Part shown: positions 230 through 46,370 of the stretch, piece by piece
Layout of the letters: every line of letters begins with the position of its first letter
Position numbering within the stretch: position 1 is the stretch's first letter
Assembly: GCA_024679065.1 (NCBI GenBank)
Contig: JAGIQG010000043.1
Location: 620,001 to 684,000, forward strand
DNA: 64,000 bases
From: Sphyrna mokarran
Lineage: Eukaryota
Reading direction: 5' to 3'
Notes under the pieces: generated by a model
The model's input: only the letters and a program-made list of their open reading frames with translations
What the model was told of the DNA's origin: nothing
The model's database searches: none
Made by a program: the position numbers and the translations under genes

Positions 230-380
230 NNNNNNNNNNNNNNNNNNNNNNNNNNNNNNNNNNNNNNNNNNNNNNNNNNNNNNNNNNNNNNNNNNNNNNN
301 NNNNNNNNNNNNNNNNNNNNNNNNNNNNNNNNNNNNNNNNNNNNNNNNNNNNNNNNNNNNNNNNNNNNNNNNNNNNNNNN
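230..380. other. Assembly gap (run of N)
   Basis: Contiguous N run; ORFs spanning it are artefacts. Confidence 0.99.
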
Positions 381-2120: not shown

Positions 2121-2327
2121 AAATGTCCCACGACTGAATTGAACCACAAAAAAACTAACTTTGGACAAGTGTCTTTTGGCCTTGAACCTGTCTATATCCA
2201 TGGAAGCCACCAGGCTTGTTAAGGTTTCCAGAATTTTCTGTGTTGGTTACGAATTCTAAGCAGCGGATTAATAATTAATGAAAAGTATCTGTATGGTTTA
2301 GCAACAAAAATTCCATACATTCATTTC

Positions 2328-2333
2328 TTTATT
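2328..2333 (-). promoter_or_regulatory. Putative polyadenylation signal (AATAAA) of the VJ-C1 receptor gene
   Basis: tttatt on the + strand, about 170 nt downstream of the TAG at 2504-2506. Confidence 0.5.
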
Positions 2334-2503
2334 CTGTTTGTGTTCTCTGGATTCTGTCAGTTCCACATCACTATTCGCGGAGGAATTTAAATGAAATTTA
2401 AAATGGCTACATTTCACACCGAACCTGCTCAAAAGTGTCATTAACTCTTTGATAAATATGTGGATTGAGGGCGCCGCGGAATAACATATTCCCACAACAA
2501 TCG

Positions 2504-2628
2504 CTAAGTCTCTACCCGGTTCCTGCAGATCCATCTTCCGGCCACAAACACCAATCCCAGAAGGAGAAGCACCACGGCCAACAAACGCACAAAAAACAAT
2601 GAATGGCAAGTGGTCGAGAATGGAGAAT
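2504..2628 (-). CDS. Exon 4: connecting peptide, TM and short cytoplasmic tail, (D)SPFSTTCHSLFFVRLLAVVLLLLGLVFVAGRWICRNRVET*
   Basis: Acceptor tttttacag, phase 1; hydrophobic helix with an internal Arg and a preceding Cys; too short for the ORF track. Confidence 0.8.
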
Positions 2629-5600
2629 CTGTAAAAAGAAATAAACTTTCACTGAACGAAAATCAACTGTGGAAATAATTAAACAAGTGAAGGATTTTTG
2701 TCTAATCTAATTGACCAGTTTGACCAGAAAATGGCAAAAAGTTTTGAACACGTTCTAATCATATAAAAGAGTAACACTTTTACAATACAACACAAGGTGA
2801 TGTAGAGAGCGATAGTGACAGAAAGACTGAACTCTTTTTTGAACAGGGGACACATAGAGATGGGGGAGAGAATGCAAGATTCACGAATAGAGTAACCTTA
2901 TAATCTCACAATGCAGAAGAAAACTAATCGGGTCATCGAGTCTGCATCACCCAATCCCCATCACCTCACGTATTTAACCTGCTAATCCCCCGACACTCGC
3001 GTTAATTTAGCACGGCCAGTCAACTTAACCCGCACATCTTTGGACTGTGGAAGGAAACAGGAGCAGCCGGAGGAAACCCACACAGACATGGGGAGTATGT
3101 GCAGAGTCCACACAGACAACTCCCGAGGCAGAAATTGAACCCAGGGCAATTGGCGATATGAGGCATCAGCGCGAATAATTATGGTACTGTGTTGTCCAAT
3201 CGAGAGGTTAAAAAAAACACTTCCAACAGGACACAGGGAGAGGCAGTGAGGGACCGTGGCAGAGGGACTGAGCACTTTTTGAACAGGGACATATAGAGAA
3301 AGGGGCGAGAGTGTGAACGATTCCGGGAGGAGAAAGAACCAAGATTTTACAAAGCTCAGTTTAAACAACAAATAAATAAAGCACGAAGTAAAGTCATGGA
3401 TTGACTGAGCCTTACAGTCATGGAAACAAGCACTCCGGATCCACTTGTGCATTCCAGCCCTTTTTGTTTAACCAATAAGCTCGTCATATTTGTCAGTGTT
3501 TGGCCCATATCCCTCCAAAGCCATCTCACTTACGTAACTGCCTGAACGTTTTTGAAAAGGCAGAATTATGCCCGCTTTTACGACTATTTCTGGCAGTCGT
3601 TCCAGGCAGTCAATTCGCTGTGTGTGAAACATGCCCTAGATATATTGACAGAATAAATAATTCAAAGTTGCAGCAGCAATCTGGGAGAACACTGTTCAAT
3701 AATAGAAAACTAGGCAGAGCAGAAAACTTGTACAGAAGTACTTAGTTAGATTTCCAATAGGAAAACAAAGAGGTTTTGAGAAAGAGCGAAAGGGAAAGAA
3801 CAATATGTTCTTGGAGAGCGATAGGTGGACAGTTAGATGGAGCACCATCTAACTAGCACAAGAATTCTTATGTGACTAGCACAAGAATTGTAAACATAGA
3901 ACGCTGGAGAATAGTAGATAAACGAAGAAATAAACACATATCATACAATATAGAATACTACAGCACAAACAGGTCCTTCGGCCAAAAGCTGAGCTCGTCA
4001 TATCCATACCTACCAGGCCTATCTATAACTCTCAATTCCATGAAATCCCATGCACTCATCCAGAAGTATCTTAAAAGACCCAAGCGAGTTCGCCTCTCCG
4101 ACAACCGACGGCAGCCCATTCCACTCATTCTCCACCCTCTGATGTAGAAAATACTTACCCTTGATATCTCCTCTGTACCTGCTCCCCAGCATCTTAAACC
4201 TGTGTCTTTTCATAGCCACCATTTCAGCCCTGGGAAATAGCCTCCGAGAATCCACTCTGTCTATACTTCTTAACATTTTATTAGCCTCTATCAGGTTGTT
4301 CTCAATGTTCGTCTCTCCAGGGAGAAGAGACCTCCCTCAATCGATCTTCATGAGGCATGCCTCCCAATCCAGGTAACATGCTTATTAATCTCCTCTGCAC
4401 CCTCTCAATAGCTTCCACAAGCTTCTTGCGACCAGAACTGGGCACAGTCCTCCACGTGAGGCCTGACAAATGTCTTATAAAGTTGCAGCACTACCTCCTG
4501 ACACCTAAACTCAATTCATCGATAAATGAAGGCTAGCACACCATACGCCTTCTTGACCACACCGTCCACCTGAGAGGCTGATTTAAGAGTCCTTTCTCCC
4601 AAGGGGGAGAAAGAGAGAGAGGGAGAGAGAGAATCGAGGGCTCAAGGTAGAGGGAGAGTGAAAGAAATGCAAACAATGTGTCAGGAGAGGCTGACCGAGA
4701 AAGCTAGGCCAGGATAAAACTTGAGGATCGATAGAGAGAAAGTGGGCGTGGGTGGGAGGTTGGGGGCGGGGTGGTGTGGAGGAGGAGGGAAGGTGGATTA
4801 GTGGATGGGGATGTGGGGTTGGTAGGGAGAGAGATAGTAAACAGGGGTCAATAAACAACTGGACAGATTGGAGTATGTGTGTAGTACAGAACAAGGCCTA
4901 TCGACCCATCCAGCCTGTTCGACAATAGTCCCACCCAGTTCCTAATCATTTAAACCCACATATTTATCCTGACACTAAGGGACAACCTCTCATTGTCAAT
5001 CCCCACTAAGAGATAATTTAGCATGGCCAATCCACTTGATTTACACTTGGACACCTCGTGTCCAAAAACTTTAAGATTCCGAGGAGTATGCGGTGCAGAA
5101 CTGATTTTACCATTAGGACATAAAAACTTGGAGCAGGAGTAGGACCTCACGCCCCTCAAGCCTGCTCCGTGATTCAATAATATCATGGCTAATTGCTTTG
5201 TGGACTCAGCTCCACTTACCAGTTCGTTCACCGTAACACTTAATTCATTTACTGCTCAAAAATGTCTCTATCCATTAGAAACATTTAGAACATTCTTGAG
5301 GTAGTCTCAACTGCTCCACTCGCAGGGAGTTCCACAGATTCACAACCTTTGTATGCAGAAGATCCTCCTCAACTCAATGCCAAATCTGATTTCCTTTCTT
5401 TTTAATGTTATGACTCTAATTCTAGTTTCATCCGCCCCTGGAAACAACTTCCCCGCTTCTATCTTTTGTATTCCCTTCACAATCTTATATATCTCTTCTG
5501 AATTCCAATGCGTATAGCCCCGGTCCACTCAGTCTCTCTTCATAAGCCAACCCTGTCAACTCCAAAATCATCCTAGTGAATCTCCTCTGCACCTCTTTCA

Positions 5601-8600: not shown

Positions 8601-9990
8601 ATGACGCATATCAGAGACTTTTTCTCCTTCTTATTTTTGATTTTCACCCAAATGGATGCAATTTTTCCCATAGAACTTATATATAATTTCTCACGGCTGC
8701 CATAATATCATCCTTAAATATCAGAGCTACACGACCTCCCTTAACTTTCTGTCAGTCCCTCCGAGTAGCTTCATACCCCGGATATCCAACTCCCGTCGTG
8801 ACCATCTTGCAACCGTGTCTCTGCAATTGCCACCAAATAATAATTGTTTGCAATGACATATTCTGACAACTCATTTACCTTGTTTGAAATGCTACGAGCA
8901 TTTGAATAAACCACCCTTATGCTAGTTTTTGTACTTCTTTTTGAATTGTAATGCTTCCATTCATGGTATCTCCTGAATTCTTCTTCCTCTTAAATTTTTC
9001 TTGATTTTTGATGTATCTGGAACCTTCGCCCACCATTTTGCCCTTTCTGTCTTATTCTCGGATTCTTTACATAATTTCCCATCCCCTGGCATATTGGTTT
9101 AGACCCTCCTCAACCTCTCTAGAATGCACTCTCCCTCGGGCATCAGTCCCAGTCCTGCCCAGTTATAGCTCGAGCAATTTTTACAGGCCCCAGAACCGGT
9201 CCCAATCCTTCAGGAATATGAAACCATTCCCCTGACACCATTTCTCAGCCAGATATGTATCCGATATATTATTTCATTTCTATTCTGACCAGCGCGGGGC
9301 ACAGGTAGAAATCCTACATCACTATCTTTCAGGCCGGATTTCTTACCTTCCTTCCTAGCTCTCTGTATTCTGCATTTAGAACCTCATTTGTTTTCTTATC
9401 TATGTCGCTTGTACCAACGTCTGCTACGATCACTGGCTGTTCGCCCTCCCCCCTTCAAAATGTCCTGCAGCTGCTCCGAGACAGCTTTGATCCCAGCACC
9501 AAGGAGGGAACATACCATAAGATGGACAGTGAGGGCCTTTTTCCTCGGATGATGATGGCTAACACGAGGGGACATAGATTTACGTTGAGGGGTGATAATT
9601 ATCGGACGAATATCAGGCGTAGGTTCTTTAATCAGAGGGTAGCAGGGGCGTAGAATGCCCTGCCTGCAGCAGTCGTGGACTCGCCAACTTTAAGGGCGTC
9701 TAAATGGTCAATGTATAGGCATATGGATAACACTGGAATAGTTTAGGTTAGAGGGTCATTAGATTGGTTCCACTGGTCGGCGCAACATCGAGGGCCGAAG
9801 GGCTTGTACTGTGTTGTAATGTTCTATGTTCTATGTTCTTTTTTGTTGCATATTTCAAATAATTGTACATTGTTCAAAAACACAAAGCGAAAAAGAATGG
9901 GCCAAACACGAATGTATTCTGAGACAGATGCTATTCGAATGGAGACTGACAAATATTAACAATTGAATATACACTCACGCTCAGATAAAC

Positions 9991-10050
<60 letters not shown>

Positions 10051-11283: not shown

Positions 11284-11360
<77 letters not shown>

Positions 11361-12792
11361 CTCAGACGCCTAGGATCAATCTGTTAATGACTTAATCTAA
11401 ATGTCTATAAAGTTGAATATAAACTTTCAACATACAGAGTAACATCTCACCTTTCTGTTTTTCAGTTCCTTTTGGATTCGACACACTCTTCGTCCAATAT
11501 TCCCCTGGAGTCCTCAGTTGAACAATACAAGTGCAGACAGCGCCGCTTCTCCAGGTTACCCCCGACACCATGACATGACTTCTGATGCTGTAGGTCCCGT
11601 CTTCCTCAATTGTCCCGGGATCACTCGATCCTTCAGTGATCAGACCGGAAATATTCCAGAAAACAACAATCTGGTTCGAAGAAATTCCACTGACCAAACA
11701 CACTAAAGGCACGGCATCAGTCACATCCAGCTCAGCAGGCGGGACAAATACCAGCAACGCTGTCCCTTTGGTAGAACTGTCTGAATAGGAATCGGGGCAC
11801 AGTTAAGGATTAATTACACCAAATGGTTTTGCTGTGCATAATCTGAATTCATTTCACTTGCTCTCTTACCTCCAACAAGTAGTGTGGGTCCATTCTGGAA
11901 CGGTGCATAGCCAACCTTATCAGCACAGTAGTAGGAACCCGAATCACTAACCTGGACATTGCGAATTTCCAGTATCAATTCATATTTGTCGTTGCCTTTT
12001 TTGGAAATAAACTTACAATCGCCCCCATCACAGGGTGGGCTATCGATTACTTTCGGGATTTCACCAACGCGTTGTTTATACCAGAAGTAGCTAGTCGCCA
12101 TTTCCACCTCATCTCCTTGGTGACAGGTTAAATTGACCGTCTGGCCGACTTTAGCTGTCACTGTGAAGGGTCTCTGAGGTAGAGAGGGCTCAGAATCTGT
12201 AATAGAGAGATTATTGACACATTACCACAGATTATTTCGACATAGAAAGCAGCCGTCTGAAAAAAAAATAGATTGCCTATAAATTAAGAACAATCTTCAA
12301 TTATTCTTGCTTAGATGCATATATACCAATTTGTGTTTCTTCTCTTGAAAGCAGAAAAAAGGAAAGAAACAAAATCCTTCCCCCAATCATTGGCTCACAT
12401 TTTCATTGTTGTAGCAGGGGAGCATGGTGGTTGCAACCAATGCCTTCAGCACTGGCATCGGGCTTCAATCCCTGGCTTGGATAATTTTCGGTGCACATTC
12501 TCGCCCTGTCTGCGTGAGTTTCCTCAGGGTCCCACAGTCCCAAAGCTGTGCTGGTTTGGTGGATTCGCCATGATAAATTATATCTCCATGACCCCTAACA
12601 GGCGCCGGAGTGTGGCGACCAGGACATTTTCACGGCAACTTCATTGCAATGTAAATGTAAACCCACATGTGACACTCATGCTTAAAAACAATATTTGGCT
12701 GATGCCAATTTAAATATCTCACCTGACACACACTCACTATAAGCCCACAGCAGTTGGAGAAAAATAATCAGGGATAAAGATCGCTGGGGCAT
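2504..12792 (-). CDS. Non-rearranging antigen-receptor-like IgSF gene (leader-VJ-C1-TM), 283 aa; join(12792..12723, 12196..11870, 11780..11451, 2628..2504)
   Basis: Four exons with canonical GT-AG phase-1 junctions (70+327+330+125 = 852 nt, open throughout); signal peptide, V-set, C1-set and TM motifs. The link to the TM exon across an 8.8-kb intron is inferred from phase, content and conservation in the paralogue. Confidence 0.85.
2900..3200 (-). mobile_element. HE1/V-SINE-like tRNA-derived SINE
   Basis: Core ctttggactgtggaaggaaacaggagcagccggaggaaacccacacagacatgggga. Confidence 0.75.
3945..4590 (-). mobile_element. CR1 LINE 3' fragment
   Basis: ORF2 C-terminal motifs (DRVDSRRLFPRAEM, QRVENEWNGLP) and a tagaa tail. 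Confidence 0.85.
5115..6975 (-). mobile_element. Old degenerate CR1 LINE (RT region)
   Basis: Broken frames with GSVLG, FADDTK and DKSPGP motifs. Confidence 0.85.
6978..8368 (-). mobile_element. CR1-C LINE, 5'-truncated, with long 3' UTR and fold-back 5' junction
   Basis: ORFs 7528-7917 and 7918-8232 ([15 protein letters not shown]; WQMEFNPDKCEVMHFG); the ORF end runs into the V-SINE-containing UTR; 8270-8368 is an inverted copy of 8099-8197. Confidence 0.85.
8400..9520 (-). mobile_element. Old CR1 remnants (endonuclease and ORF1 regions)
   Basis: SIWVKIKNKKEKKSLICVIHRP resembles the CR1 APE domain. Confidence 0.6.
9517..9838 (+). mobile_element. CR1 3' end
   Basis: MDSEGLFPRM...NTRGHRF; (gttctat)n tail. 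Confidence 0.8.
9968..11030. repeat. (CA)n microsatellite plus ~1-kb degenerate CA/TA-rich minisatellite (recurring ctcagatattta)
   Basis: Pure (CA)n at ~9995-10047, then irregular units containing ctcagatatt. Confidence 0.85.
11286..11357. repeat. (CA)n microsatellite
   Basis: Perfect dinucleotide run about 95 nt past the C1 exon donor. Confidence 0.95.
11451..11780 (-). CDS. Exon 3: C1-set Ig constant domain
   Basis: LVFVPP...VPLVCLVSG...VVFWNISG...DGTYSIRSHVMV...W.SGAVCTCIVQ; acceptor ctattcag, donor aag/gtgaga. Confidence 0.92.
11870..12196 (-). CDS. Exon 2: V-set domain with germline-joined J-like G strand
   Basis: GQTVNLTC...FWYKQRVGEIPK...LEIRNVQVSDSGSYYCA...FQNGPTLLVG; acceptor tattacag, donor gag/gtaaga; no RSS. 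Confidence 0.93.
12415..12680 (+). mobile_element. HE1-like SINE in intron 1
   Basis: agcatggtggttgc...cattctcgccctgtctgcgtgagtttcctc...cccacagtccc. Confidence 0.65.
12723..12792 (-). CDS. Exon 1: signal peptide MPQRSLSLIIFLQLLWAYSECVS
   Basis: ATG, hydrophobic core, phase-1 donor cag/gtgaga; length and sequence conserved in the paralogue at 62779-62848. Confidence 0.85.
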
Positions 12793-28862: not shown

Positions 28863-28863
28863 G

Positions 28864-29760
28864 TTCAAAAAGTGCTCAGTCCCTCTTTCACTGTATCTCT
28901 CTCTCTCTGCCTCTCCCTGTGTCATATTGGAAAAGTGTTAAAAAAAAATCTCGATTGAGCAGCATGGTGGCACGATTGTTAGCACTGATGTCTCACAGCG
29001 CCAAGAGCCCGAGCTTCAATTCCGGCCTCGGGCATTGTTTGTGCGGACTTTGCGCATTCTCTCCGTCATTGCGTGGGTTTCCGCGGATGTTCCGGTTTCC
29101 TCCCACAATCCAAAGATCCAATTAGATTGATTGTCCATGCTAAACCTGAGTGTCATGGGGATTAGCACAGTAAATATATGAGGTGACGGGGATAGGGCGG
29201 GATTGATAGAAGTCTAGACTCGATGGCCCGGATGGTCTTCTTTGCACCGTGGGATTCCATGGTTATGTTCTCCATGAAGCATTCACTCTCTCCTTCCATC
29301 TCTATGTGTTTCCTGTTCAAAAAGTACTCAGTCTCTCTGCCACTATCTCTTTCTACCTTGCCTTGTTGTCTGCTGTAAATGTGCTACTCTATTGCATGAT
29401 GGGAAAGTGTGCCAAAAACTCTTTTTGTCATTTTCCGGTCAAATTTGACAGTTAAATTGGACACAATCCTCCGCTCGTTTAATTATTTCCACATGTGATT
29501 TTCATTGAGTGAAAAATTACATCTTGTTGCAGACTTTGCCTTCTCGACCAGCTGTCATGTACTGTTTTCAGGGGTTTGTCGGCCGCGACGCTTCTCCGTC
29601 TGGGATTGGTCCTTGAGACCGGAAGAAGGACCTGCAGGAACCGGCAGAGAGGTAGCAGTTGTTGAGGGAACCTGTTAATCCATGGCGTCTCAATCTACTC
29701 ATTTATCACTGAGTTACTGACACTTTTGAGAGGATTCGTTGTGAAATGTAGCCATTTAAC
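28864..29760 (+). pseudogene. Remnant of a paralogous VJ-C1 receptor gene: last intron, frameshifted TM exon (29533-29655) and 3' UTR
   Basis: Reverse-complement homology to 2397-3290, including the shared SINE. The exon reads (D)FAFSTSCHVLFS, then a 1-nt deletion; polar substitutions in the former TM. Confidence 0.8.
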
Positions 29761-30935
29761 GTTTCGGTTGAAAAGTTGGATCTCTGGTGTTGTATTATCA
29801 AAATTACTCCGCCTGCAACGTGCCAGTGAGAGTAAAGATTGGAAGATTGCACAGCTCAACACATTGCTAACCATTTGGCGTAGGGAAGAAGTATTCAGAT
29901 ATTTGGACCTTTGGGAACTCTTCCAGCGCAATTGGGACCTGTACCCAGCACCCTAGCGCTGTGAAGCAGCAGTGCTAACCACTGTGCTACCGTGCTGCCC
30001 ATAGTCTGAGGGAGCTGGGTTTCTTCTCTTTGGAGCAGAGGAGGATGAGAGACGAATGAAAGATTTATATGATGATGAGAGAATTGATAGAATGGACATG
30101 CAGGACTATTTTCTCGGGTGGGTGTAGCGCTTACTAGCGGGCATAAGTATAAATTTCACGGTGGGAGTTACAGGAGGAATGCCAGAGGTAAATTTTTTAG
30201 TGAGAGAGTGTTTGGGATGTGGAATAGGCAGCCTACTGCGATCGTGGAGTCGGTCACTTTGGGAACTATTGAATGGGCACGTGGAACACTCCAGAATTAT
30301 AGCGAGGGGATAGCTTGATCGTGTGATTTGACATAGCTGGGCACAACCCTGAGGACTGAACGGCCTGTATTGTGTTGTAATGCTCTATGTAGGTGTAACA
30401 GGTAAGGCGGATCATCTTGGCGCTTGGATTAGCACTTGGAATTATGATCTTGACGCCACTACAGAGACTTGGTTAAGCATAGGAGGTGGTTGTTGGTCGC
30501 TTAATTTTCCAGGATACAGATGTTTCAGGCAGATTAGAAAAGAATTAAAAAAGTGGGGTGAGAGTGTTCCACTACTGGTTAACCAGAATATCGCAGCTAA
30601 AATTCGAGAGGAAACCTCGGAGTGCTCATAATACCAGGCAATCTGGATAGCATTCAGGAATAGGGAAGGTACATTCACAATGATGGGGCTTAAACTACAG
30701 ACCTCCCAACAGAGAGATCAATATTCTTTCTCACGATGTGTGCCACAGGTCTGAAATTCCCATTGTTGATTGGCATTATGCTGACTCCACGGCATGTTGT
30801 CATGCTGGCAATTATTATATTTTCAATGCAATGTTTAAAAATAGAATTATTTGGAATTCTCTACGAGAGTGAGAATAACATTGAACCTCATTCCACATTC
30901 TCTACCTTTTCCCTCTTTTTTCTTTCTTTTTACAG

Positions 30936-31852
30936 TTAACTTCATTGCGATTGTGACACTGACTCGAGAAAAGTGTGGTCTATCCAAATGTATCACGAGC
31001 TACATGCTGGCAATGGTCGTGACCGATCTGCTGGTTATTCTCACAGAGGTCATTCTATTTCGGACAGGTTATCAATTTAACCCTGGATCTTTTCTCTCCC
31101 TTACTCCTGTGTGCAGTGTTATTGCTGTTTTGACTCGTGCCTCTAGAGACAGCTCCGTTTGGTTAACAGTCTGTTTCTCGTTTGATCGCTTCATCGCTAT
31201 TTGTTGCCACAAGCAGAAAACAAAATATTGCACAAAGAGAACTGCGTCTCTTGTCATAGCAACGACATGCGTTCTGCTGAGTTTGAAAAGCATTGTTTGG
31301 TATTTTATATATGAACCTTATGAGATAATTGAAAATAAGCCGTGGTTTTGTGCTGTTAAGCAAAGTTATTTTGTTGAGCCAGGATGGATAGCCTTTGATT
31401 GGTTTGACACAGTTTTAACCCCAATACTCCCATTCTTTTTAATATTACTGCTCAATACTTTGACAGTCAGACACATATTATTGGCCAGCAAAATCCGCAG
31501 TACCCTGAGAGGACAGAAGAATAGAGGCAACCACAGTGATCCAGAGATAGAGAGCAGGAAGAAGTCTGCTGTGCTACTTTTTGCAATTTCAGGCAGTTTT
31601 ATCCTTCTGTGGATGGTATATTTTGTGGAATTCCTGTATTATAGCTTTGCAGGAACAACAGTTCTAGATTACACCGACTCATTAAACACATTTGCCCGGG
31701 TTGGAGTTATGCTGCAGAATTTAAGTTCCTGCACAAACACATTTATTTATGGGGTGACTCAGAGAAGATTCAGAGAGCAGTTCAAAAGTGTGTTGAAATA
31801 CCCGATTATTGCAATTGTCAAATTTATTTACAATAAAACAACTGATTTGTGA
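30936..31852 (+). CDS. GPR139/GPR142-like class A GPCR, main coding exon of copy A (no cognate exon 1 found; possibly 5'-truncated)
   Basis: Acceptor tttttacag/TTAAC; 917-nt open exon with 7TM motifs (TDLL, FDRFIAICC, TPILPF, LSSCTNTFIY). Confidence 0.85.
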
Positions 31853-32169
31853 GCAGAAGAAAATCGATCGTTCCCAGATCATAGGAACATATAAACATAG
31901 AAAATCATTCTATGAAGGGTTTGAATGGCTCTTTGGTCATTCAAGCCTGCTGCACCATTTATTCCATTTGTGGCTGATCGTCCAACTGAACATCTTAATT
32001 CAGCTTTTTCCCCATAATCTTTGACTCCATTCACCACAAGTGCTATATCTTGCCGCCTCTTGACTGAGTTCAATCTTTTGCCATCAACTACTTCCTGTGG
32101 TAATGAATTCCAAAAGCTCACTATTGTTTGCCTGAAGAAATGCCTCCTCGCGTCTGTCCTAATTGGTCA

Positions 32170-34035
32170 CACACCATAGAACCATAGAACAATGCAGCAC
32201 AAACAGGCTCTTTGGCCCACGAGTTGTGCCAATCACATCTACCAATCCACAGACCTATCTATAACCCCCTATCCCATTCTTTTCCATGTACTCATCCAGA
32301 ATCTTTTAAAAGACCCCAGAGAGTTTGCCTCAACAATCTCCGACGGCAGCCGATTCCATTCACTCACCACCCTCTGAGTGAGAAACCTGCCCCTAACATC
32401 CTCTCTATACTTACTTCCCTGCACCTTAAGTCTGTGTCCTCTTGTAGTGACTATTTCAGCTCAGGGAAATATTCTCTGAGAGAATATTTCCTGTCTATTC
32501 CTCTGATCATTTTATAAACCTCTATCAGGTCGCCTCTCAACCTATGTCTCTCCAGTGAGAAGGGTCCCAGATCCCTCAACCTATCTTGGTAAGTCCTGCC
32601 TCCCAATTCAGGCAGCATCCTTGTAAATCTGCTCTGAACTCTCTCAATCGCCTCTACATCCTTCCGATAGTGAGGCGACCAGAACTGCGCACAATACTCC
32701 AAGTGGGGTCTGACAAGGGTCTTATAGAGCTGCATCATTACCTCCTGACTCCTAAACTCTATTCCTCGATTAAAGAAGGCCAGTACACCATACACCTTCT
32801 TGACCACTTCCTCCACCTGCGAGGCCGATTTAAGAGTTCTATGGACCCGGACCCTGAGTTCCTCCTGCTCTACAACACAGCTAAGACTCCTACATTGTAC
32901 TCCTTCATCCCATTATTCCTGCCAAAATGGACCACTACACATTTATCTGCGTTGAAGTCCATCTGCCACTTCTCCGCCCAGTCTTGCATCCTGTCTATAT
33001 CCCGCTGCAACTTTTGGCATCCCTCAAGACCATCCACAACACTACCGACCTTTGTATCATCGGAGAACTTACTAATTCATTCCTCCACTTCCTCATCCAG
33101 GTCATTTATGAAAATGACAAACAGCAGGGAACCCAGAACAGATCCCTGGGGCACTCCACTGGTTACCAACCGCCATGCAGAACAAGACCTGTCTACTACC
33201 ACTTTCTGCCTTTTGCCAGCAAGCCAGTTCTGGATCCACGAGGCCAAAGCCCCTTGTATCCCATGCCCTCTCACCTTCTCAGAAGCCTTGCATGTGGGAC
33301 CTTATCAAACGTCTTGCTAAAGTACATGTACACTACGTCCACCGCTCTTCCTTCGTCAATGTGTTCAGTCACATTTTCGAAGAAGTCAACTAGTCTCGTA
33401 AGGCATGACATGCGCTTCACAAACCCATGCTGACTATTTCTAATCAGTCTAAACTTCTTCAAATGTTCATAAATCTTATCCCTCAGAAGCTTCTTCATCA
33501 GCTTACCAACCACTGAAGTCAGACTCACCGTTCGGTAATTTCCTGGACTATCCCTGCTCCCTTTCTTAGAGGTAGGAACCACATCCGCAATCCTCCAATC
33601 CTCTGGAACCCCTCCCGTTTCCATGGACGATGCAAATATCATCACCAAGGGCTCTGCAACCACTTCCCTCACCTCCCACAATAACCTGGGGTACATCCCA
33701 TCCGGTCCCGGCGACTTGTCTATATTGATAGAATTTAACAGGTGTAACACATCCTCTTTCCTAACATGCATATACTCAATCTTTTCCATTTGCCTCAAAC
33801 CTGCAGTAGAACCTCCCAGTTCACTTTCCACCGTGAATACCGAGGCAAATTACTCGTTAAGTACCTCTGCCATTTCTTCCGGATTCACACAGATTTTTCC
33901 CCCTTCACCTTTTATAGGTCCTATCCCTTCTCTTCTCATCCTTTTACTTTTCACATATTTGGAGAAGGCCTTGGGATTCTCCTTAATCTTTCCTGCCAAA
34001 ACGTTCTCATGACCCCTTCTGGCTCTCCTAATTTT
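32170..34035 (-). mobile_element. CR1-B LINE, 5'-truncated (absent from the right arm)
   Basis: RT motifs in ORFs 33271-33831, 33077-33274 and 32451-32816; empty site at ~53350. Confidence 0.92.
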
Positions 34036-34629
34036 TAATCCTTTATCTCCCAGCTGTGAACCCTGGGTCTCGGCTCGCCAACCATCAGAAATATGTTCTC
34101 AGTTCTATCCTCGGTAGTCCTATTTGATCTTTTCAAGTTTCTATGAGATTGCCCTCATTCGTCTGAACTCCACCGGTAACAGTGCTAACCTCATCAATCT
34201 ATCCTCATACATCAGTCCTGTCATCCCCAGAATCAGCCAGAGTACCTTGACTGCATTCCATTGAGAACAAGAACATCTTTCCTCAGACAAGGAGACCAAA
34301 AGAAGAACACAATACTCTTGGCGTGGCCTCATGAACTCTCTATTTAATTGCAACAACACATCCCTGCTCCTGTATTCAAAATCTCTCAAATAAAGGCCAA
34401 CATGAAATTTGCTTTTGTCATCGCCTGCTACACCTCCATGTCTATCTTTAGTGACTGGAGCACAAGGGCACCCAGATCCCGCTGCAAACTCTCCTCTCCC
34501 AATTCAGGTTGTGAAGTTCCTTCCTGTTTTTGCTTCCAAAGTGAATAATCTCACATTGGTCCACATGGTACTAGGTTTACCATTGATTTGCGCACTCGCC
34601 CCAACTGTGCAAATCGTTCTAAAAGATTC

Positions 34630-35881
34630 ATAGAACATAGAACAATACAGCACAGAACAGGCCCTTCGGCCCTCGATGTTGTGCCGACCAAAATAAAAAG
34701 CAATGCCCCTCCTAACTAAACCATTCCCTTCTCATCCATATACCTATCAACTAACCTCTTAAACGCCACCAAACTTGGCGCATCCACAACAGCTGCAGGC
34801 AGGGCATTCCACTCCCTAATCACTCTTTGAGTAAAGAACCTACCTCTGATATCCGTCCTATAACTCATACCCCTTAATTTAAAGTTGTGTCCCCTCGTGC
34901 TAGCTTTTTCCATCCTAGGAAAAAGTCTATCACTGTCCACCCTATCCAAACCTCTAATTATCTTATATGTTTCAATAAGATCCCCCCTTAGCCGCCTCCT
35001 TTCTAACGAAAACAGCCTCAAATCCTTCCACCTCTCTTCATAGGACCTGCCCTCCATACCAGGCAACATCCTAGTAAACCTCCTCTGTACCCTCTCCAAT
35101 GCCTCCACATCTTTCTTATATGTGGCGACCAGAACTGCACACAATACTCCAAGTGCGGCCGCACTAGAGTTTTGTACAGCTGCAACATGATGCTGCGGCT
35201 CCTAAATTCAATCCCCCTACCAATACAAGCTAAGACTCCATAAGCCTTCTTAACAACTTTATCCACTTGACTGCCTACTTTCAGGGATCTATTGACACAT
35301 ACACCAAGATCCTTCTGTTCCTCAACACTATTAAGAGCCTACCATTAGCCCTATACTCTACACATTTATTGTTCCTGCCAAAGTGCATTACCTCACACTT
35401 TTCCACATTAAACTCCATTTGCCACCTCTCGTCCCAGCTCTGCAACTTGTCCAAGTCACTCTGTAAACTAAAACCCCCCTCTTCACTATCTACCCCACCA
35501 CCAACTTTAGTATCATCTGCAAATTTACTGATCCATCCCTCAATACCCTCATCCAGATCATTTATAAAAATTACAAACAGCAGGGGCCCCAAAACCGACC
35601 CCTGAGGCCCACCACTCGTCACCGAACTCCACGAAGAAAATCTCCCATCAACCACCACCCTCTGTCTTCTATCTGCCAGCCAATTTCTAATCCAATTAGC
35701 TTAATCACCCTCTATTCCACACATCTGCATTTTCTGTAGAAGTCTTCCATGGGCCACCTTATCAAAAGCCTTACTAAAGTCCAGATATACTACATCAACC
35801 GCCTTACCCCCATCCACCTCTCTGGTCACTTTCTCAAAAAACTCAATGAGGTTAGTAAGGCATGACCTACCCTTCACGAAA
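34630..35881 (-). mobile_element. Young CR1-A LINE, 5'-truncated (absent from the right arm)
   Basis: PQGSVLGPLLF, FADDTK; (catagaa)n tail; empty site aaaagat|acctcaatg at ~52760. Confidence 0.93.
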
Positions 35882-37554
35882 CCTCAATGCTCGTCACAAT
35901 TCTGCCCTCCCCATATTGTTATCTTCTGCAAACTTTGAGTTGTTACATGTTGTTCTCTCATGCCAATAATTATATATAGTGAATGGTTCAGCACCGATTG
36001 TTTCGGCACTAGCATTTGGTGGAAAATCAACTATTCATTCCTGCACTTTGTTTCCTAACTGCCAACCAGTTTTCTATCTATTCTAATATTCTTGCCCCAA
36101 TCCCCTCTGCTTTAATATTCCACGATAATCTCTTCGGCGGGGCTTTGCCAGGTGTTTTCTTGAAGTTCAAACATACCACGGTACACTTGATCACTTCAGG
36201 CAGTTCAACAGAATTTCAATAAAAACCCAAAATATCTCCTGAAGCTTGTCAGTCGTTTGCTTGGATATTTCTGTTTTTGATGCAGGTGCGGTAAAATAAT
36301 TTGGCTCCCAAGCTGCTCAGGTCCTTAGTTTTGGTAACAAACAACAAATTAGGTGCCCCTTTCACAGTGATGCCCCATTACAACAGGAGAATAAAGCTCC
36401 GATGTAATTTGCAGCCCTTGTAGAGCGGTTCCCTGACAGCTGTACGAACCATAATAACCGTTAATAGAGCAGAATTTCGTTAGCATATTTGCACTAATTT
36501 CAATGGTAAACTGAATGAACCTCTCAATTTTAAAGCAAGAAAGCTTTCTTTTAAAAAAAATTCAAAACATTGCGATCATTGTTCTTACGGTATTCCAGTC
36601 TTTTATTAATGTCCAATCCATGCATTTTATTGCATTTGGAAAACATTTAGGAAAATGACTTCTTTTGATTGCCAACCATGATCATCAGGATTGGCAAAGC
36701 AGGTTCGAAGAGCAGAAAGACAGTCTTCCATTTCTATTTTCTACATATGCTTCTAATATCTCAAGTAGAACCTCAATGAAACAGGCACATATCAACGTGT
36801 TACGTTGATGGAACGTTGTCTCTGGCAGTGATTTGTCCAAGTCAATAAGAAAAAATGAAAAAAGTTTTGTAAAGATTACAAAGTTACGACAATATCATGA
36901 AGTTCGTAAAGTGCATCAATGATTGAAAATGTTTGGTTTGCTAAATATTAAAAAAAACGTATTCATCTAACACACATTAAGAAAAATACAGGACCAGAGT
37001 TGATAGAATTAATTACGAGAAAGTAATTAAGAACGCACAAAACCAAATTTACTTCCGAACTGTGAATACAAAAAGCACTTTCTTTAATCATCACAAAATA
37101 AGCTGCGCTAGTTTGAAGAGTAGTGTTGACCGTTTTAACACTTAGCTTTTCTTTGCATAATGAAAATTTGTATTTAAAGAATGGAACTGATAATTTAAAT
37201 TTCCAGAGAAGGGAACTTGTCCACACCAATAATTGATCCAATTTGTCATCTTGCATCACTGGATTAGAAAGAGCACCTGGGAAATCTGCAGCTGGCATGG
37301 ACAGGATGATTCCAATGAGCTACTTCGGTGCTGTAACTTTTCACTTGTTCTACGACTGGAGTTGGATACGTTTTTCTCTCTCTCTTATTTGTCTAATTTC
37401 ACTGCAGTTTTAGGATAGTTGTAGTGCTGGAGGCGGGTCTGTCTTTATATGATCAGTTTACTTCAAATTATAAGCATAATCCAGTTTTATTATAAGGAAT
37501 ATGGTAACGAAACACTGAAAAATGTCAACAGAATGAGACAAAGTCAATATATAT

Positions 37555-40937: not shown

Positions 40938-43660
40938 TGCAGATAGGGAAGCAGATGTAGAAATAACAGTATTGTCGTGATGGGAGATTTCAATTTCCCA
41001 AACATCGACTGGAATATCCCAAGGGTAAGGGGTTTGGATGGTGTGGAGTTTGTTAGATGTGTTCAGGAAGGTTTCCTGACACAGCACGTGGAAAAGCCCA
41101 CGAGAGGAGAGGCTGTACTTGACCTGATGCTTGCTAATGAGCCAGGGCAGGTGTCAGATCTCACGGTAGGTGAGCATCTTGAGAATGGACATCATAATTC
41201 TATCTCTTTCACGGTAGCGATGGAAAGAGATAGGATCAGGCAGGCTAGGAAGGTGTATGTCTGGAGTAAGGGGAAATATGAAAACATTAGGCAGGTAACT
41301 GGACGTATGAACTGGAAGGAGGTGTTCTTGGGGAGGAGTACAGAAGGAAAGTGCCAGTTTTTCAAGGAATGTTTGCCTGGGGCACTGCAAGACAACGTTC
41401 CGAGGAGTCAAGGAGGTTCTGGTAGAACGTGGGAACCGTGGTGCACGAAGGTAGCGGTGAACCTAGTTGGGAAGAAAAAAAAAGTATATAAAAGGTTCAG
41501 AGAGCTAGAGGGTGTTAGAAATCTAGAGGAGAATAAGGTGTGTAGAAGGGAACTTAAGAGGGAAATTAGGAGAGCCAGAAGAGGTCATGAGAAAGCCTTG
41601 GCAGGTAAGATTAAGGAGAATCCCAAGGCCTTCGACAAATATGTGAAAGTAAAAGGATGAGAAGGGAAGGGATAAGGCCTATAAAAGGTGAAGTGGGAAA
41701 AGTCTGTGTGAATCCGGAAGAAATGGCAGACGTGCTTAACGAGTACTTTGCCTCGGTATTCATAGTGGAAAGTGAACTGGGAGATTGCACTGCAGGTTTG
41801 AGGCACACGGAAAAGATTGAGTATGTGGATGTTGGGAAAGAGGATGTGTTAATAGAACATAGAACATAGAACATTACAGCGCAGAACAGGGCCTTCGGAC
41901 TTCGATGTTGCGCCGACCAATTCTGAAAAAAAAAGCAATGACCCTCCAAACTAAACCATTCCCTTCTCTTCCATAAACTTATCAACTAACCTCTTAAACG
42001 CCACCAAACTTGGCGCATCTACAACTGTCGCAGGCAGGGCATTCCACTCCCTAACCACCCTCTGGGTAAAGGTTAGAATTTAACAGGTCATGTTAGACCT
42101 GTTAAATTCTATCAAGATAGACAAGTTGCCGGGACCGGATGGGATGTACCCCAGGTTATTGTGGGAGGTGAGGGAAGTGGCTGCAGAGCCCCTGGCGATG
42201 ATCTTTGCATCGTCAATGTAAATGGGAGAGGTTCCAGAGGATTGGAGGATTGCGGATATGGTTCCTATCTTTAATAAAGGGAACAGGGATAGTCCAGGAA
42301 ATTACTGACCGGAGAGTTTGACTTCCGTGGTTGGTAATCTGATGGAGAGGCTTCTGAGGGATAAGATATATAAACATTTGAAGAAGTTTGGACTGATTAG
42401 AAATAGTCAGCATGGTTTTGTCAAGGGCAGGTCATGCCTGACGAGCCTAGTTGACTTCTTCGAAAAAGTGACTGAACACATTGACGAAGGAAGAGCGGTG
42501 GACGTAGTGTACATGGACTTTAGTAAGACGTTTGATACGGTCCCCCATGCAAGGCTTCTGGAGAAGGTGAGAGGGCATGGGATCCAACGGGCTTTGGCCT
42601 CGTGGATCCAGAACTGGCTTGCCGGCAGAAGGCAGAGAGTGGTTGTGGATGGGTCTTCTTCTGCATGGAGGCCGGTAACCAGTGGAGTGCCCCAAGGAAC
42701 TGTTCTGGGACCCCTGCTGTTTGTCATTTTCATAAATGACCTGGATGAGGAAGCGGAGGGATGGGTTAGCAAGTTCGCCGACGATGCAAAGGTCGGTGGT
42801 GTTGTGGATGGTCTGGAGGGATGCCAAAAGTTGCAGCGGGACATAGACAGGATGCAAGAGTGGGCGGAGAAGTGGCAAATGGACTTCAATGCACATAAAT
42901 GTGCAGTGTCCATTTTGGCAGGAATAATGGAATGAAGGAGTACAATATAAGGGGTAGGAGTCTTAGCTGTGTTGTAGAGCAGAAGGATCTCGAGGTCCGG
43001 GTCCATAGGACTCTTCAATCGGCCTCGCAGGTGGAGGAAGTGGTCAAGAAGGCGTACGGTGTACTGGCCTTCATTAATCGTGGAATAGATTTTCAGAGTC
43101 AGGAGGTAATGATGCAGCTCTATAAGACTCTTGTCAGACCCCAGTTGGAGTATTGTGCGCTGTTCTGGTCGCCTAATTATAGGAAGGATGTAGAGGCTAT
43201 TGAGAGATTTCAGAGGAGATTTACAAGGATGCTGCCTGGATTGGGAGGCAGGCCTTATGAAGATAGGTTGAGGGAGCTGGGACTCTTCTCACTGGAGAGA
43301 CGTAGGTTGAGAGGCGACCTGATAGAGGTTTATAAAATGTTGAGAGGAATAGATAGGGTGGACTCTCAGAGACTATTTCCCCGAGCTGAAATGGTCACTA
43401 CGAGAGGACACAGATTTAAGGTGCAGGGAAGCAAATACAAAGGAGATGTCAGGGGTAGGTTTTCCACTCAGAGGGTGGTGAGTGAATGGAACCGACTGCC
43501 GTCGGAGGTTGTTGAGGCAAACTCACTGGGGTCTTTTAAGAGACTTCTGGATGAGTATATGGAAACAAATAGGATAGGAGATTATAGATAGGTCTGTGGA
43601 TTGGTAGATGTGGTTGGCGCAACTCGTGGGCCGAAGGGGTGTTTGTGCTGTATTGTTCTA
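40938..43660 (+). mobile_element. CR1-B LINE ORF2 (endonuclease C-terminus and RT), with a nested CR1-A 3' end at ~41850-42070
   Basis: [37 protein letters not shown]; frameshifted; absent from the right arm. Confidence 0.93.
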
Positions 43661-46002
43661 TAGAACATAGAACATAGAACAATACAGCACAGAACAGGCC
43701 CTTCGGCCTTCGATGTTGTGCCGACCAAAATAAAAAGCAATGCCCTCCAAACTAAACCATTCCCTTCTCTTCCATATACTTATCAATTAACCTCTTAAAC
43801 GCCACCAAACTTGGCGCATCTACAACAGCTGCAGGCAGGGCATTCCCATCCCTAATCACTCTTTGAGTAAAGAACCTACCTCTGATATCCGTCCTATAAC
43901 TCATACCCCTTAATTTAAAGTTGTGTCCCCTCGTGCTAGCTTTTTCCATCCTAGGAAAAAGGCTATCACTGTCCACCCTATCCAAACCTCTAATTATCTT
44001 ATATGTTTCAATAAGATCCCCCTTAGCCGCCTCCTTTCTAACGAAAACAACCTCAAATCCTTCAACCTCTCTTCATAGGACCTGCCCTCCATACCAGGCA
44101 ACATCCTGGTAAACCTCCTCTGTACCTCTCCAATGCCTCCACATCTTTCTTATAATGTGGCGACCAGAACTGCACACAATACTCCAAGTGCGGCCGCACT
44201 AGAGTTTTGTACAGCTGCAACATGATGCTGCGGCTCCTAAATTCAATCCCCTACCAATAAAAGCTAAGACTCCATATGCCTTCTTAACAACTTTATCCAC
44301 TTGACTGCCTACTTTCAGGATCTATTGACACATACACCAAGATCCTTCTGTTCCTCAACACTATTAAGAGCCCTACCATTAGCCCTATACTCTACACATT
44401 TATTTTTCCTGCCAAAGTGCATTACCTCACACTTTTCCACATTAAACTCCATTTGCCACCTCTCGGCCCAGCTCTGCAACTTGTCCAAGTCACTCTGTAA
44501 ACTAAAACACCCCTCTCCACTATCTACCACACCACCAACTTTAGTATCATCTGCAAATTTACTGATCCATCCCTCAATACCCTCATCCAGATCATTTATA
44601 AAAATTACAAACAGCAGGGGCCCCAAAACAGACCCCTGAGGCACACCACTCGTCACCGAACTCCACGATTAATATCTCCCATCAACCACCACCCTCTGTC
44701 TTCTATCTGCCAGCCAATTTCTAATCCAATTAGCTAAATCACCCTCTATTCCACACATCTGCATTTTCTGTAGAAGTCTTCCATGGGCCACCTTATCAAA
44801 AGCCTTACTAAAGTCCATATATACTACATCAACCGCCTTACCCCCATCCACCTCTCTGGTCACTTTCTCAAAAAACTCAATGAGGTTAGTAAGGCATGAC
44901 CTACCCTTCACGAAACCATGCTGACTATCCCCAATCAATTCATTTCTCTCTAAATAACTATAAATCCTATCCCTAATAATTCTCTCCAATACCTTGCCCA
45001 CCACAGAAGTAAGACTCACTGGCCTATAATTCCCAGGAAGGTCTCTCTTCCCCTTCTTAAACAATGGGACCACATTCGCCATCCTCCAGTCCTCCGGAAC
45101 CACACCCGTAACCAACGAGGACCTGAAGATCAGAGCCAGAGGCTCTGCAATCTCCTCTCTTGCCTCCCAGAGAATCCTAGGGTAAATCCCGTCCGGCCCA
45201 GGGGACTTATCCAACTTCAAACCCTCGAGAATTTCTAACACATCCTCCCTATCTACTACAATACTCCCCAATTTGCAACCCTGTACCTCAGTGCTCTCCA
45301 CAGCTACATTTCCAGCACTCTGCGTGAATACCGAAGAGAAATATTTATTCAGTGCCTCGCCAATCTCTTCAGGCTCCACGCACAACTTCCCACTGCTATC
45401 TATGACTGGCCCTAATCTTGCCCTAACCAATCTTCTATTCTTAACATATCGAAAGAAAGCTTTAGGATTCTCCTTAATCCTATCAGCCAACATCTTCTCG
45501 TGTCCCCTCTTAGCTCTCCTCAATTCACTTTTTACCTCCTTCCTAGCTAATCTATAGCTATCCATTGCACTACCTGAGCCTTCAAGCCTCATCCTGACAT
45601 AAGCCTCCTTTTTCTTCTTAACCAGCAAATCAACTCTTTTCGTACACCAAGGCTCTCTTACTCGTCCATTTCCTCCCTGCCTGACAGGGACATACTTATC
45701 AAGGACTCTCAGCAGCTGCTCCTTGAATAAGCACCACATTCCAGATGTTCCCAGTCCCTGTAGTTCCCTAGTCCAATCTACGCACCCTAATTCTCTCCTG
45801 ATGGCCTCATAATTACCCTTCCCCCAGCTATAACTACAGCCCCCAGCTTCATGCCTATCCCTGTCCATCACTAAGGTGAACGTAACCGAATTGTGGTCAC
45901 TATCACCAAAATGTTCACTAACTTCCAAGCCTAACACCTGGTCTGGCTCATTGCCCAGCACCAAATCCAATGTAGCCTCACCTCTAGTTGGCCTATCTAC
46001 AT
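43661..46002 (-). mobile_element. Young CR1-A LINE inserted into the tail of the preceding element
   Basis: Long ORF2 segment (most of ORF 44669-46126) with DKSPGPDG, NYRPVSLTS, DFSKAFD; a few stops and frameshifts. Confidence 0.95.
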
Positions 46003-46370
46003 ATTTAATCCGGAAAAATGCGAGGTGATGCATTTTGGCCGGAAAAATGTAGAAGAGAATTATAGGATAAAAGGTAAAACTATACGGAGCATAGAGACGC
46101 AGAGAGACTTGGGGGTGCAGGTTCACAAGTCTCTGAAGGTGTCCTCATTGGAAAAAGTTTACCTCCATTTACTCCATCTACACCCCTTACAATCTTACAC
46201 ACCTCCATGAGATCCCCTCCAAGCCGACGTCCCCCAAGGGAAAAGAACCCCAGTCCACCCAACCGTTCCCCACAGGACAGTCCCTCCACACCAGGCAGCA
46301 TCCCGGCAAACCTCCTCCGCACTCTCTCCAAGGACCCCACATCCCTCCGATAGCACGGAGACCAGAACTG
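46003..46370. mobile_element. Chimeric CR1-C fragments at the 5' junction (46003-46147 +; 46150-46370 -, A-to-G hypermutated)
   Basis: Homologous to 8008-8152 and 7655-7875 respectively. Confidence 0.85.

Follow-up and report, generated by a model that had tools for sequence, protein, structure and literature searches.

The analysed DNA, referred to below as the window, comprised 64,000 nt of the genome of Sphyrna mokarran (GCA_024679065.1, JAGIQG010000043.1, positions 620,001-684,000). Its minus strand carries a leader exon, a V exon and a C1 exon, and further downstream a short segment encoding a putative hinge and transmembrane (TM) region, separated from C1 by a putative intron of 8.8 kb (Table 1).

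Table 1. Positions of the gene parts and of the duplicated block in the window
Feature	Position	Strand	Details
Leader exon	12738..12792	-	ATG at 12792; phase-1 donor; matches family leaders; loose contig end of relatives at 12202 resembles leader by eye
V domain, single exon	11870..12196	-	Joined degenerate J-like G strand (FQNG); extra Cys pair; Pfam V-set E 1.7e-12
C1-set Ig exon	11451..11780	-	Phase 1 at both ends; AG/GT ends; Pfam C1-set E 5e-9
Polypyrimidine tract and AG acceptor	2629..2648	-	Top of 765 AGs 3' of C1 (ad hoc score)
Putative terminal hinge-TM exon, coding part	2504..2628	-	41 residues and stop (2506-2504); Cys8, Arg15; hydrophobic run 11-29; basic stop-transfer; tail of ~10 residues
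AATAAA, first poly(A) hexamer past the stop	2328..2333	-	171 nt past the stop; background 0.8 per kb, weak by itself
Assembly gap	230..380		151 N, 3' of the putative exon
Block of ~900 bp enclosing the putative exon	2393..3284	-	Inverted duplicate at 28863-29765; 74% over 917 columns
Decayed orphan copy of the exon	29533..29655	+	1-nt deletion; Cys codon kept; Arg codon GGT; charged/polar changes in core

A joined VJ-C1 gene and the putative terminal exon

The V and C1 exons lie on the same strand with 89 nt between them. The V exon contains a J-like G strand of its own and is thus germline-joined; in the 13000-11400 region, a search with exact motifs found no RSS nonamer. The leader, V, C1 and the segment joined together form an open frame of 278 residues, in which the hinge Cys is Cys245. 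Reading through the C1 donor also leaves the frame open, for 20 additional residues before a stop.

Contigs of relatives from four public runs (two studies; run shares 0.05-0.06; RNA status of the runs a guess), mostly less than 95% alike, were mapped on the region 11362-12650 only. They covered V and C1 and omitted the 89-nt intron, with V joined to C1 across the intron in contigs from three runs of one study, which shows that V-C1 splicing occurs in relatives. One contig ended exactly at 11451, the 3' end of C1. No loose contig end naming the exon after C1 was detected in the four runs mapped on this region, and the contigs say nothing on the TM exon.

The V exons of relatives seem to begin 6 nt more upstream, with contigs reaching 12202, and no AG is present there in the hammerhead sequence. 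For the leader, position 12721 offers an additional candidate phase-1 donor (the sites concerned are 12197-12203 and 12721-12737, minus strand). The extra Cys pair of the V domain (chain residues 74 and 79; 11960-11980, minus strand) and a Cys-x-Cys in the F strand of C1 (residues 210 and 212; 11529-11535, minus strand) are nearly invariant or invariant in the family alignment. The structure prediction from this alignment had a mean pLDDT of 39.9, and the best 60 of 6629 rows of the solved-structure search were all antibody chains.

The earlier note had described the segment as a TM exon hidden from the open reading frame list, with a membrane-proximal Cys, an Arg near the N-terminal end of the TM and a tail of about 10 residues without a Tyr motif. 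The sequence bears this description out. Translation of the minus strand from 2629 to 2501 gave the 41 quoted residues with the stop at 2506-2504; the Cys is residue 8 and the Arg, residue 15, is the fifth of the 19-residue hydrophobic window, no Tyr is present, and the position five residues past the Arg, where TCR-alpha has a Lys, is occupied by Val. As only 15 uncharged residues and a Gly (16 in all) come after Arg15, the Arg would lie about one turn inside the outer membrane face. The segment opens with a split Asp codon in phase 1, which matches the C1 donor at 11451.

When microsatellites are left aside, no 19-mer in any of the window's six frames is more hydrophobic than that of the segment, with a KD value of 2.98 (runner-up 2.59). 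The scan of the whole window returned 26 stretches at KD >=2.2, six of them in GT-repeat frames. The acceptor of the segment scored 17.3, in comparison with 14.1 and 14.5 for the genuine V and C1 acceptors, and ranked first among 765 AGs located between 11450 and 381 (ad hoc pyrimidine score); 11 of 8305 AGs in the entire window match its score. The combination of acceptor, phase 1 and TM occurred once in the 11 kb 3' of C1 and did not recur in the remaining 98 kb, counted over both strands of the window with the GPCR coding sequence masked. In order-4 Markov simulations it was observed in 0/300, 5/300 and 29/300 runs at KD 2.9, 2.5 and 2.0, respectively, the cut at 2.9 having been chosen after the value of the segment was seen. 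A chance hydrophobic stretch was rejected on these counts, as no simulation reached the segment's own score and five did so at the laxer one. Whether still used or a fossil, the segment 2504..2628 is thus very likely a TM exon. The splice from C1 (11451) to the segment (2628), judged from the DNA, is reasonably probable.

Searches with the 41-residue exon were a weak test, the query being short and hydrophobic: there were no relatives among 371 candidates at E up to 10, no matches when 1.84 billion representatives were searched at E up to 0.001, and no usable match in the Atlas. An alternative frame on the same acceptor (2298-2648, minus strand) is open for 116 codons, and protein P0009 of Cetorhinus reads most of its homologue of the exon in this way. 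This frame was rejected as coding since it has stops in the second copy of the exon in the window and its sole support is the P0009 model. The segment was also considered as a first exon of a GPCR gene and rejected, the GPCR first exon being located at 60465-60397 and unrelated. The start of the exon (2615-2628, minus strand) is a near-perfect 7-nt tandem repeat.

Outside the VJ-C1 gene, the window contains two rhodopsin-type GPCR frames (Pfam 7tm_1; 30845-31852 on the plus strand and 53669-54826 on the minus strand) within an inverted duplication of 91% identity (30340-32168 versus 55186-53352). The first exon was found only for the second frame, and the frame at 30845-31852 may be an incomplete duplicate. 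Many fragments, some open for 360-490 codons, lie at 33271-36000, 42309-46144 and 55519-56613; these resemble LINE reverse-transcriptase frames. GT microsatellites were noticed near 9990-10050 and 11285-11357.

Homologous copies of the segment

The block enclosing the segment is present twice in the window, and the copies of the exon are no more alike than their surroundings (78% identity for the exon, 78% upstream and 79% downstream). The second copy has lost the frame and the hydrophobicity, its acceptor strength is down to 13.1, and no V or C1 exon accompanies it in the window. Between the two exon copies pN was 0.21 and pS 0.22, a test of low power since the second copy is dead; the ratio was lowest in a non-TM frame (0.17/0.34, 22 differences). 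A genome-wide repeat, still conceivable as the nature of the block, was set aside: only two copies were found in 64 kb, with a SINE-like insertion common to both by eye. At 29765-29771 a duplication breakpoint is marked, where the end of the decayed block copy lies only a few bases from the start of the GPCR duplication.

A homologue of the exon was identified in one of 95 family proteins, Cetorhinus P0009, where it is read mostly in the other frame and sits behind a normal TM and the first tail exon. Its start seems to be shifted by 7 nt, and another 7 nt seem to be inserted past the Cys codon, so that the offsets cancel; its Cys codon is probably present in the DNA but in a different frame from the core. 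Where the segment has CGT for the Arg, the second copy has GGT, and the copy of Cetorhinus AGT or AAT.

The elasmobranch VJ-C1 family

The V exon search returned 24 shark proteins with 59-77% identity among 27 matches, and the profile search 61 proteins from sharks, rays, skates, one sturgeon and one teleost. The family is defined here as P0001-P0062, and 95 family proteins were used in the checks for exon use. Its members, mostly of 250-350 residues, bear automatic names such as 'immunoglobulin kappa light chain-like'. In the literature searched, no description of this VJ-C1 family was found; Fu 2019 and Ohta 2019 may already list the genes. The V and C1 of the window gene are homologous to the family and nested in the shark clade, sister to Mustelus P0013 (SH-aLRT 97, 78% identity over 207 columns), which has an unusual C1 end in common with the window gene and carries a neutral TM and a YASL tail (inhibitory type).

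A TM follows the last C1 in 47/61 family proteins; the remaining 14 were dropped. All 47 TM exons, the inhibitory ones included, have a hinge Cys. The TM is neutral in 39, of which 32 end with YASL/YTSL; in rays this is a canonical ITIM, and in most sharks it is ITIM-like, with Pro at -2. The other eight carry an Arg at Cys+6 to Cys+9 and none of them has YASL/YTSL (0/8 versus 32/39; Fisher p 2e-5, with rows that are isoforms, paralogues and automatic models and not independent events). Short tails may be model truncations, and seven neutral entries are also without the motif. A first, wider window for basic residues had given the motif in 6/14 versus 26/33 (p 0.037), and it was narrowed after this count took in the boundary Arg of ray genes. 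In two ray genes the Arg was gained and the motif decayed: P0042 ends ILYA and P0048 has ILHASF. These two are harder to explain as model truncation because the Arg coincides with a motif cut short or mutated. The motif is also absent in all five members of the Arg-type cluster of catshark.

On the V+C1 tree (55 rows; P0006 left out, without an anchor) the Arg label required 10 changes for 12 rows, and 119/500 shuffles were as low. Since the Arg types are scattered over the tree, the nearest ectodomain does not fix the type of TM. A species may have an Arg gene and a neutral gene that are sisters on the tree and hardly differ in the ectodomain, and the pattern fits the homogenisation of paired-receptor ectodomains described in PMC3210942. 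A precedent for a second class of TM exon is provided by one 90% sturgeon cluster, in which P0064 and P0075 have a neutral TM with VQYASL, while P0078, P0080 and P0081 end in an Arg-TM exon of another kind, whose tail has about 7 residues. In Scyliorhinus canicula, P0068, one isoform from an Arg-type gene, continues from C1 into a further terminal stretch that is short, hydrophobic and contains an Arg. In one Heterodontus cluster the TM exon is missing in all three isoforms (P0006, P0091 and P0092), two of which keep the YASL tail; these are possibly soluble forms. The Arg/ITIM split is the pattern of paired receptors, which makes an activating family member plausible, and this family-wide pattern is a stronger result than the single uncertain exon.

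The segment is not recognisably the TM exon of this family. A TM exon of the family type has the Cys at about residue 3 and an RS end before the tail exons, whereas the Cys of the segment is residue 8 and the exon is terminal. On family TM profiles, built without the tested lineage, the segment scored 2.2-7.0 bits versus 20-57 bits for most held-out shark TMs; divergent TMs of ray, skate and sturgeon scored 16, 5 and 2.5 bits, respectively. The profile of Arg-type exons gave 6.9 bits, equalled by 48/500 shuffles that kept the Cys, the Arg and the composition. The Arg spacing of the segment, Cys+7, is inside the family range, and the NV-x-R context common to the Arg-type exon of Heterodontus, Hemiscyllium, Chiloscyllium and Scyliorhinus is missing. 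The best pairwise result, with catshark neutral TMs (z 3.8 among 47 comparisons), was largely due to a Trp that is absent from both homologous copies of the segment. None of the 95 family proteins uses the segment as its TM. Profile and motif searches revealed no TM or cytoplasmic exon of the family type between C1 and the window end; the visible sequence 3' of the segment is 2.5 kb only and includes the gap 230-380, which could conceal more exons.

Possible mode of action and known receptor systems

In the best explanation of these data, given an even chance here, the segment would supply the last exon, for hinge and TM, to a germline-joined VJ-C1 receptor gene (leader, V, C1 and TM; 278 residues), and the window copy would be an activating-type member of the elasmobranch paired-receptor family. 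If expressed, the V domain would bind a ligand shared with the inhibitory siblings, the chain would probably be disulphide-linked via the hinge Cys like these siblings, and the Arg near the outer face would find its partner in the two aspartates of a dimeric ITAM adaptor, of which zeta or FcR-gamma is the most likely. This pairing is proposed because the chain has no signalling tail. Provided that the splice is used, the chain shows the marks of an activating type: an Arg located in the outer TM half, a TM centre without Lys, a short tail without a Tyr motif and inhibitory siblings that share the ectodomain. The free membrane-proximal Cys suits a dimer. According to passages of PMC13107469, an Arg near the top of the TM contacts zeta or FcR-gamma dimers in TCR-alpha and CD89, the same contact is assumed for NKp30 and NKp46, the Arg of NKG2D serves DAP10, and simpler receptors need no more for assembly than a basic residue in the right place, even if their TM is featureless. 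By this analogy, use of an adaptor would be quite likely once the splice is granted. The view that the segment truly serves an activating-type receptor as its terminal TM exon is slightly favoured.

The activating-receptor reading of the earlier note is supported by the TM exon being very likely, by the Arg placed as in the zeta/FcR-gamma docking signature and by the Arg-TM members without tyrosine in the family; the dissimilarity of the segment to the family TM exon, the neutral TM and YASL tail of P0013 and the Arg codon not kept in the copies speak against it. The hinge Cys, from which together with the Arg a disulphide-linked activating receptor had been deduced, is present but has no bearing on activation, being found in inhibitory TM exons as well. 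A lone TCR-like invariant receptor was the wrong frame, as a diversified paired-receptor family fits instead. The whole earlier proposal, including the dimer and a particular adaptor, is doubtful.

The segment could instead be a fossil TM exon in an old duplicated block within a long intron, with the real TM and YASL tail exons beyond the window start or in the gap and an inhibitory product like that of Mustelus P0013, and such an outcome, although less than likely, has to be taken seriously. It would account for the close sister relationship with P0013 and the unusual C1 end in common, the difference from the family TM exon, the decayed copy 27 kb away with an exon conserved no better than its flanks, the Cetorhinus homologue behind a normal TM exon and the short visible sequence, with its gap, 3' of the segment. 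In a fossil one would not expect to find the top-ranked acceptor of 765, a hydrophobic core still intact and the correct phase, whereas the second copy has lost acceptor strength, frame and hydrophobicity; moreover, ectodomains do not predict the TM type in this family.

It is improbable that the exon is used with the Arg as a recent interface substitution, the product being a tail-less decoy or a partner chain without its own adaptor, possibly in a heterodimer with ITIM-bearing siblings. The three different codons at the Arg site in the three homologous copies and the missing NV-x-R context would agree with such a role, but the 16 uncharged residues past the Arg are too few to span the bilayer without it, and passages of PMC13107469 hold a correctly placed basic residue to be enough for assembly of simpler receptors. 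Least credible is a gene with no working TM exon, that is, a secreted V-C1 form arising by read-through of the C1 donor or a truncated duplicate. The 14/61 family proteins without a TM past the last C1, the three TM-less isoforms of the Heterodontus cluster, the open read-through frame and the patchwork of segmental duplications in the region are in line with this option; many of the TM-less entries are, however, exon-skip isoforms or automatic models running into an intron, and the C1 donor is intact with a strong in-phase acceptor downstream.

PRARP has an ITIM/ITSM-like tail and forms disulphide-linked dimers, SIRP-beta has a TM Lys and a V-C1-C1 layout, and NKp30 is not known to have a C1 domain. 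The present family differs from PRARP and VJC1 in its degenerate J motif (FQNG/LQNG; FGNG in sturgeon relatives), its expansion and its Arg-TM partners, and the window gene differs from SIRP in the single C1 and the N-terminal TM Arg. PRARP and VJC1, mentioned as non-rearranging VJ-C1 genes in passages of PMC10751288, which cites Fu et al. 2019 and Ohta et al. 2019 for them, resemble the window gene in the single-exon VJ, the C1 and the lack of rearrangement. SIRPs are likewise paired receptors with homologous ectodomains, SIRP-beta signalling with DAP12 (PMC12975943), and in the ranking of proteins that look like P0004, SIRP clusters take places 6-7 (0.95-0.96). NITRs of ray-finned fish are multigene receptors with germline VJ exons and inhibitory (ITIM/itim), activating (charged TM residue) and secreted forms, for which bioRxiv 10.1101/2021.06.11.448072 describes evidence of homologues in cartilaginous fishes as lacking. 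The likeness to the present family is in the multigene organisation and the kinds of forms; the second NITR domain is I-type with a J motif, whereas that of the window gene matches C1-set only, which sets it outside the NITRs.

The Arg near the outer TM end with zeta/FcR-gamma docking is a likeness to NKp30 (NCR3), CD89 and TCR-alpha (passages of PMC13107469), NCR3 also being a single-exon VJ gene (passages of PMC12227049). TCR-alpha, in contrast, rearranges and has a central Lys for CD3-delta/epsilon. With the V and J-like strand in one exon, 89 nt from C1, and no TM Lys, the window gene is not a TCR chain. The UrIg genes, as far as described in passages of PMC12227049, are secreted with three C1 domains, and nurse shark UrIg2 has nine and a TM; they share with the window gene the non-rearranging shark VJ exon, the C1-type domains and the automatic annotation as an Ig light chain. 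The window gene has one C1, where a UrIg would have three or more, and its family has paired TM/tail types. By analogy, the window gene would work like NITR/SIRP paired receptors and be built like the non-rearranging VJ-C1 genes PRARP and VJC1.

A broader and tentative proposal is that sharks and rays carry an undescribed cluster of germline-joined VJ-C1 paired receptors with ectodomains homogenised within species and TM/tail modules swapped, in which the window gene became activating by recruiting a terminal TM exon, not related to the usual one of the family, that docks zeta/FcR-gamma by a TCR-alpha-like Arg without CD3. If true, nothing would come closer than such a cluster to an antigen-receptor chain that does not rearrange and is wired in the manner of an NK receptor. 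Passages of PMC12227049 and PMC10751288 present non-rearranging VJ-C1 genes as sought-after relics of the gene into which the RAG transposon moved. Little is known of multigene NK-type paired receptors in cartilaginous fish, and a VJ-C1 family with inhibitory and Arg-bearing activating forms in sharks, rays and probably sturgeon would constitute a testable candidate system. Should the proposal hold, a chain of antigen-receptor shape could signal through zeta or FcR-gamma without CD3.
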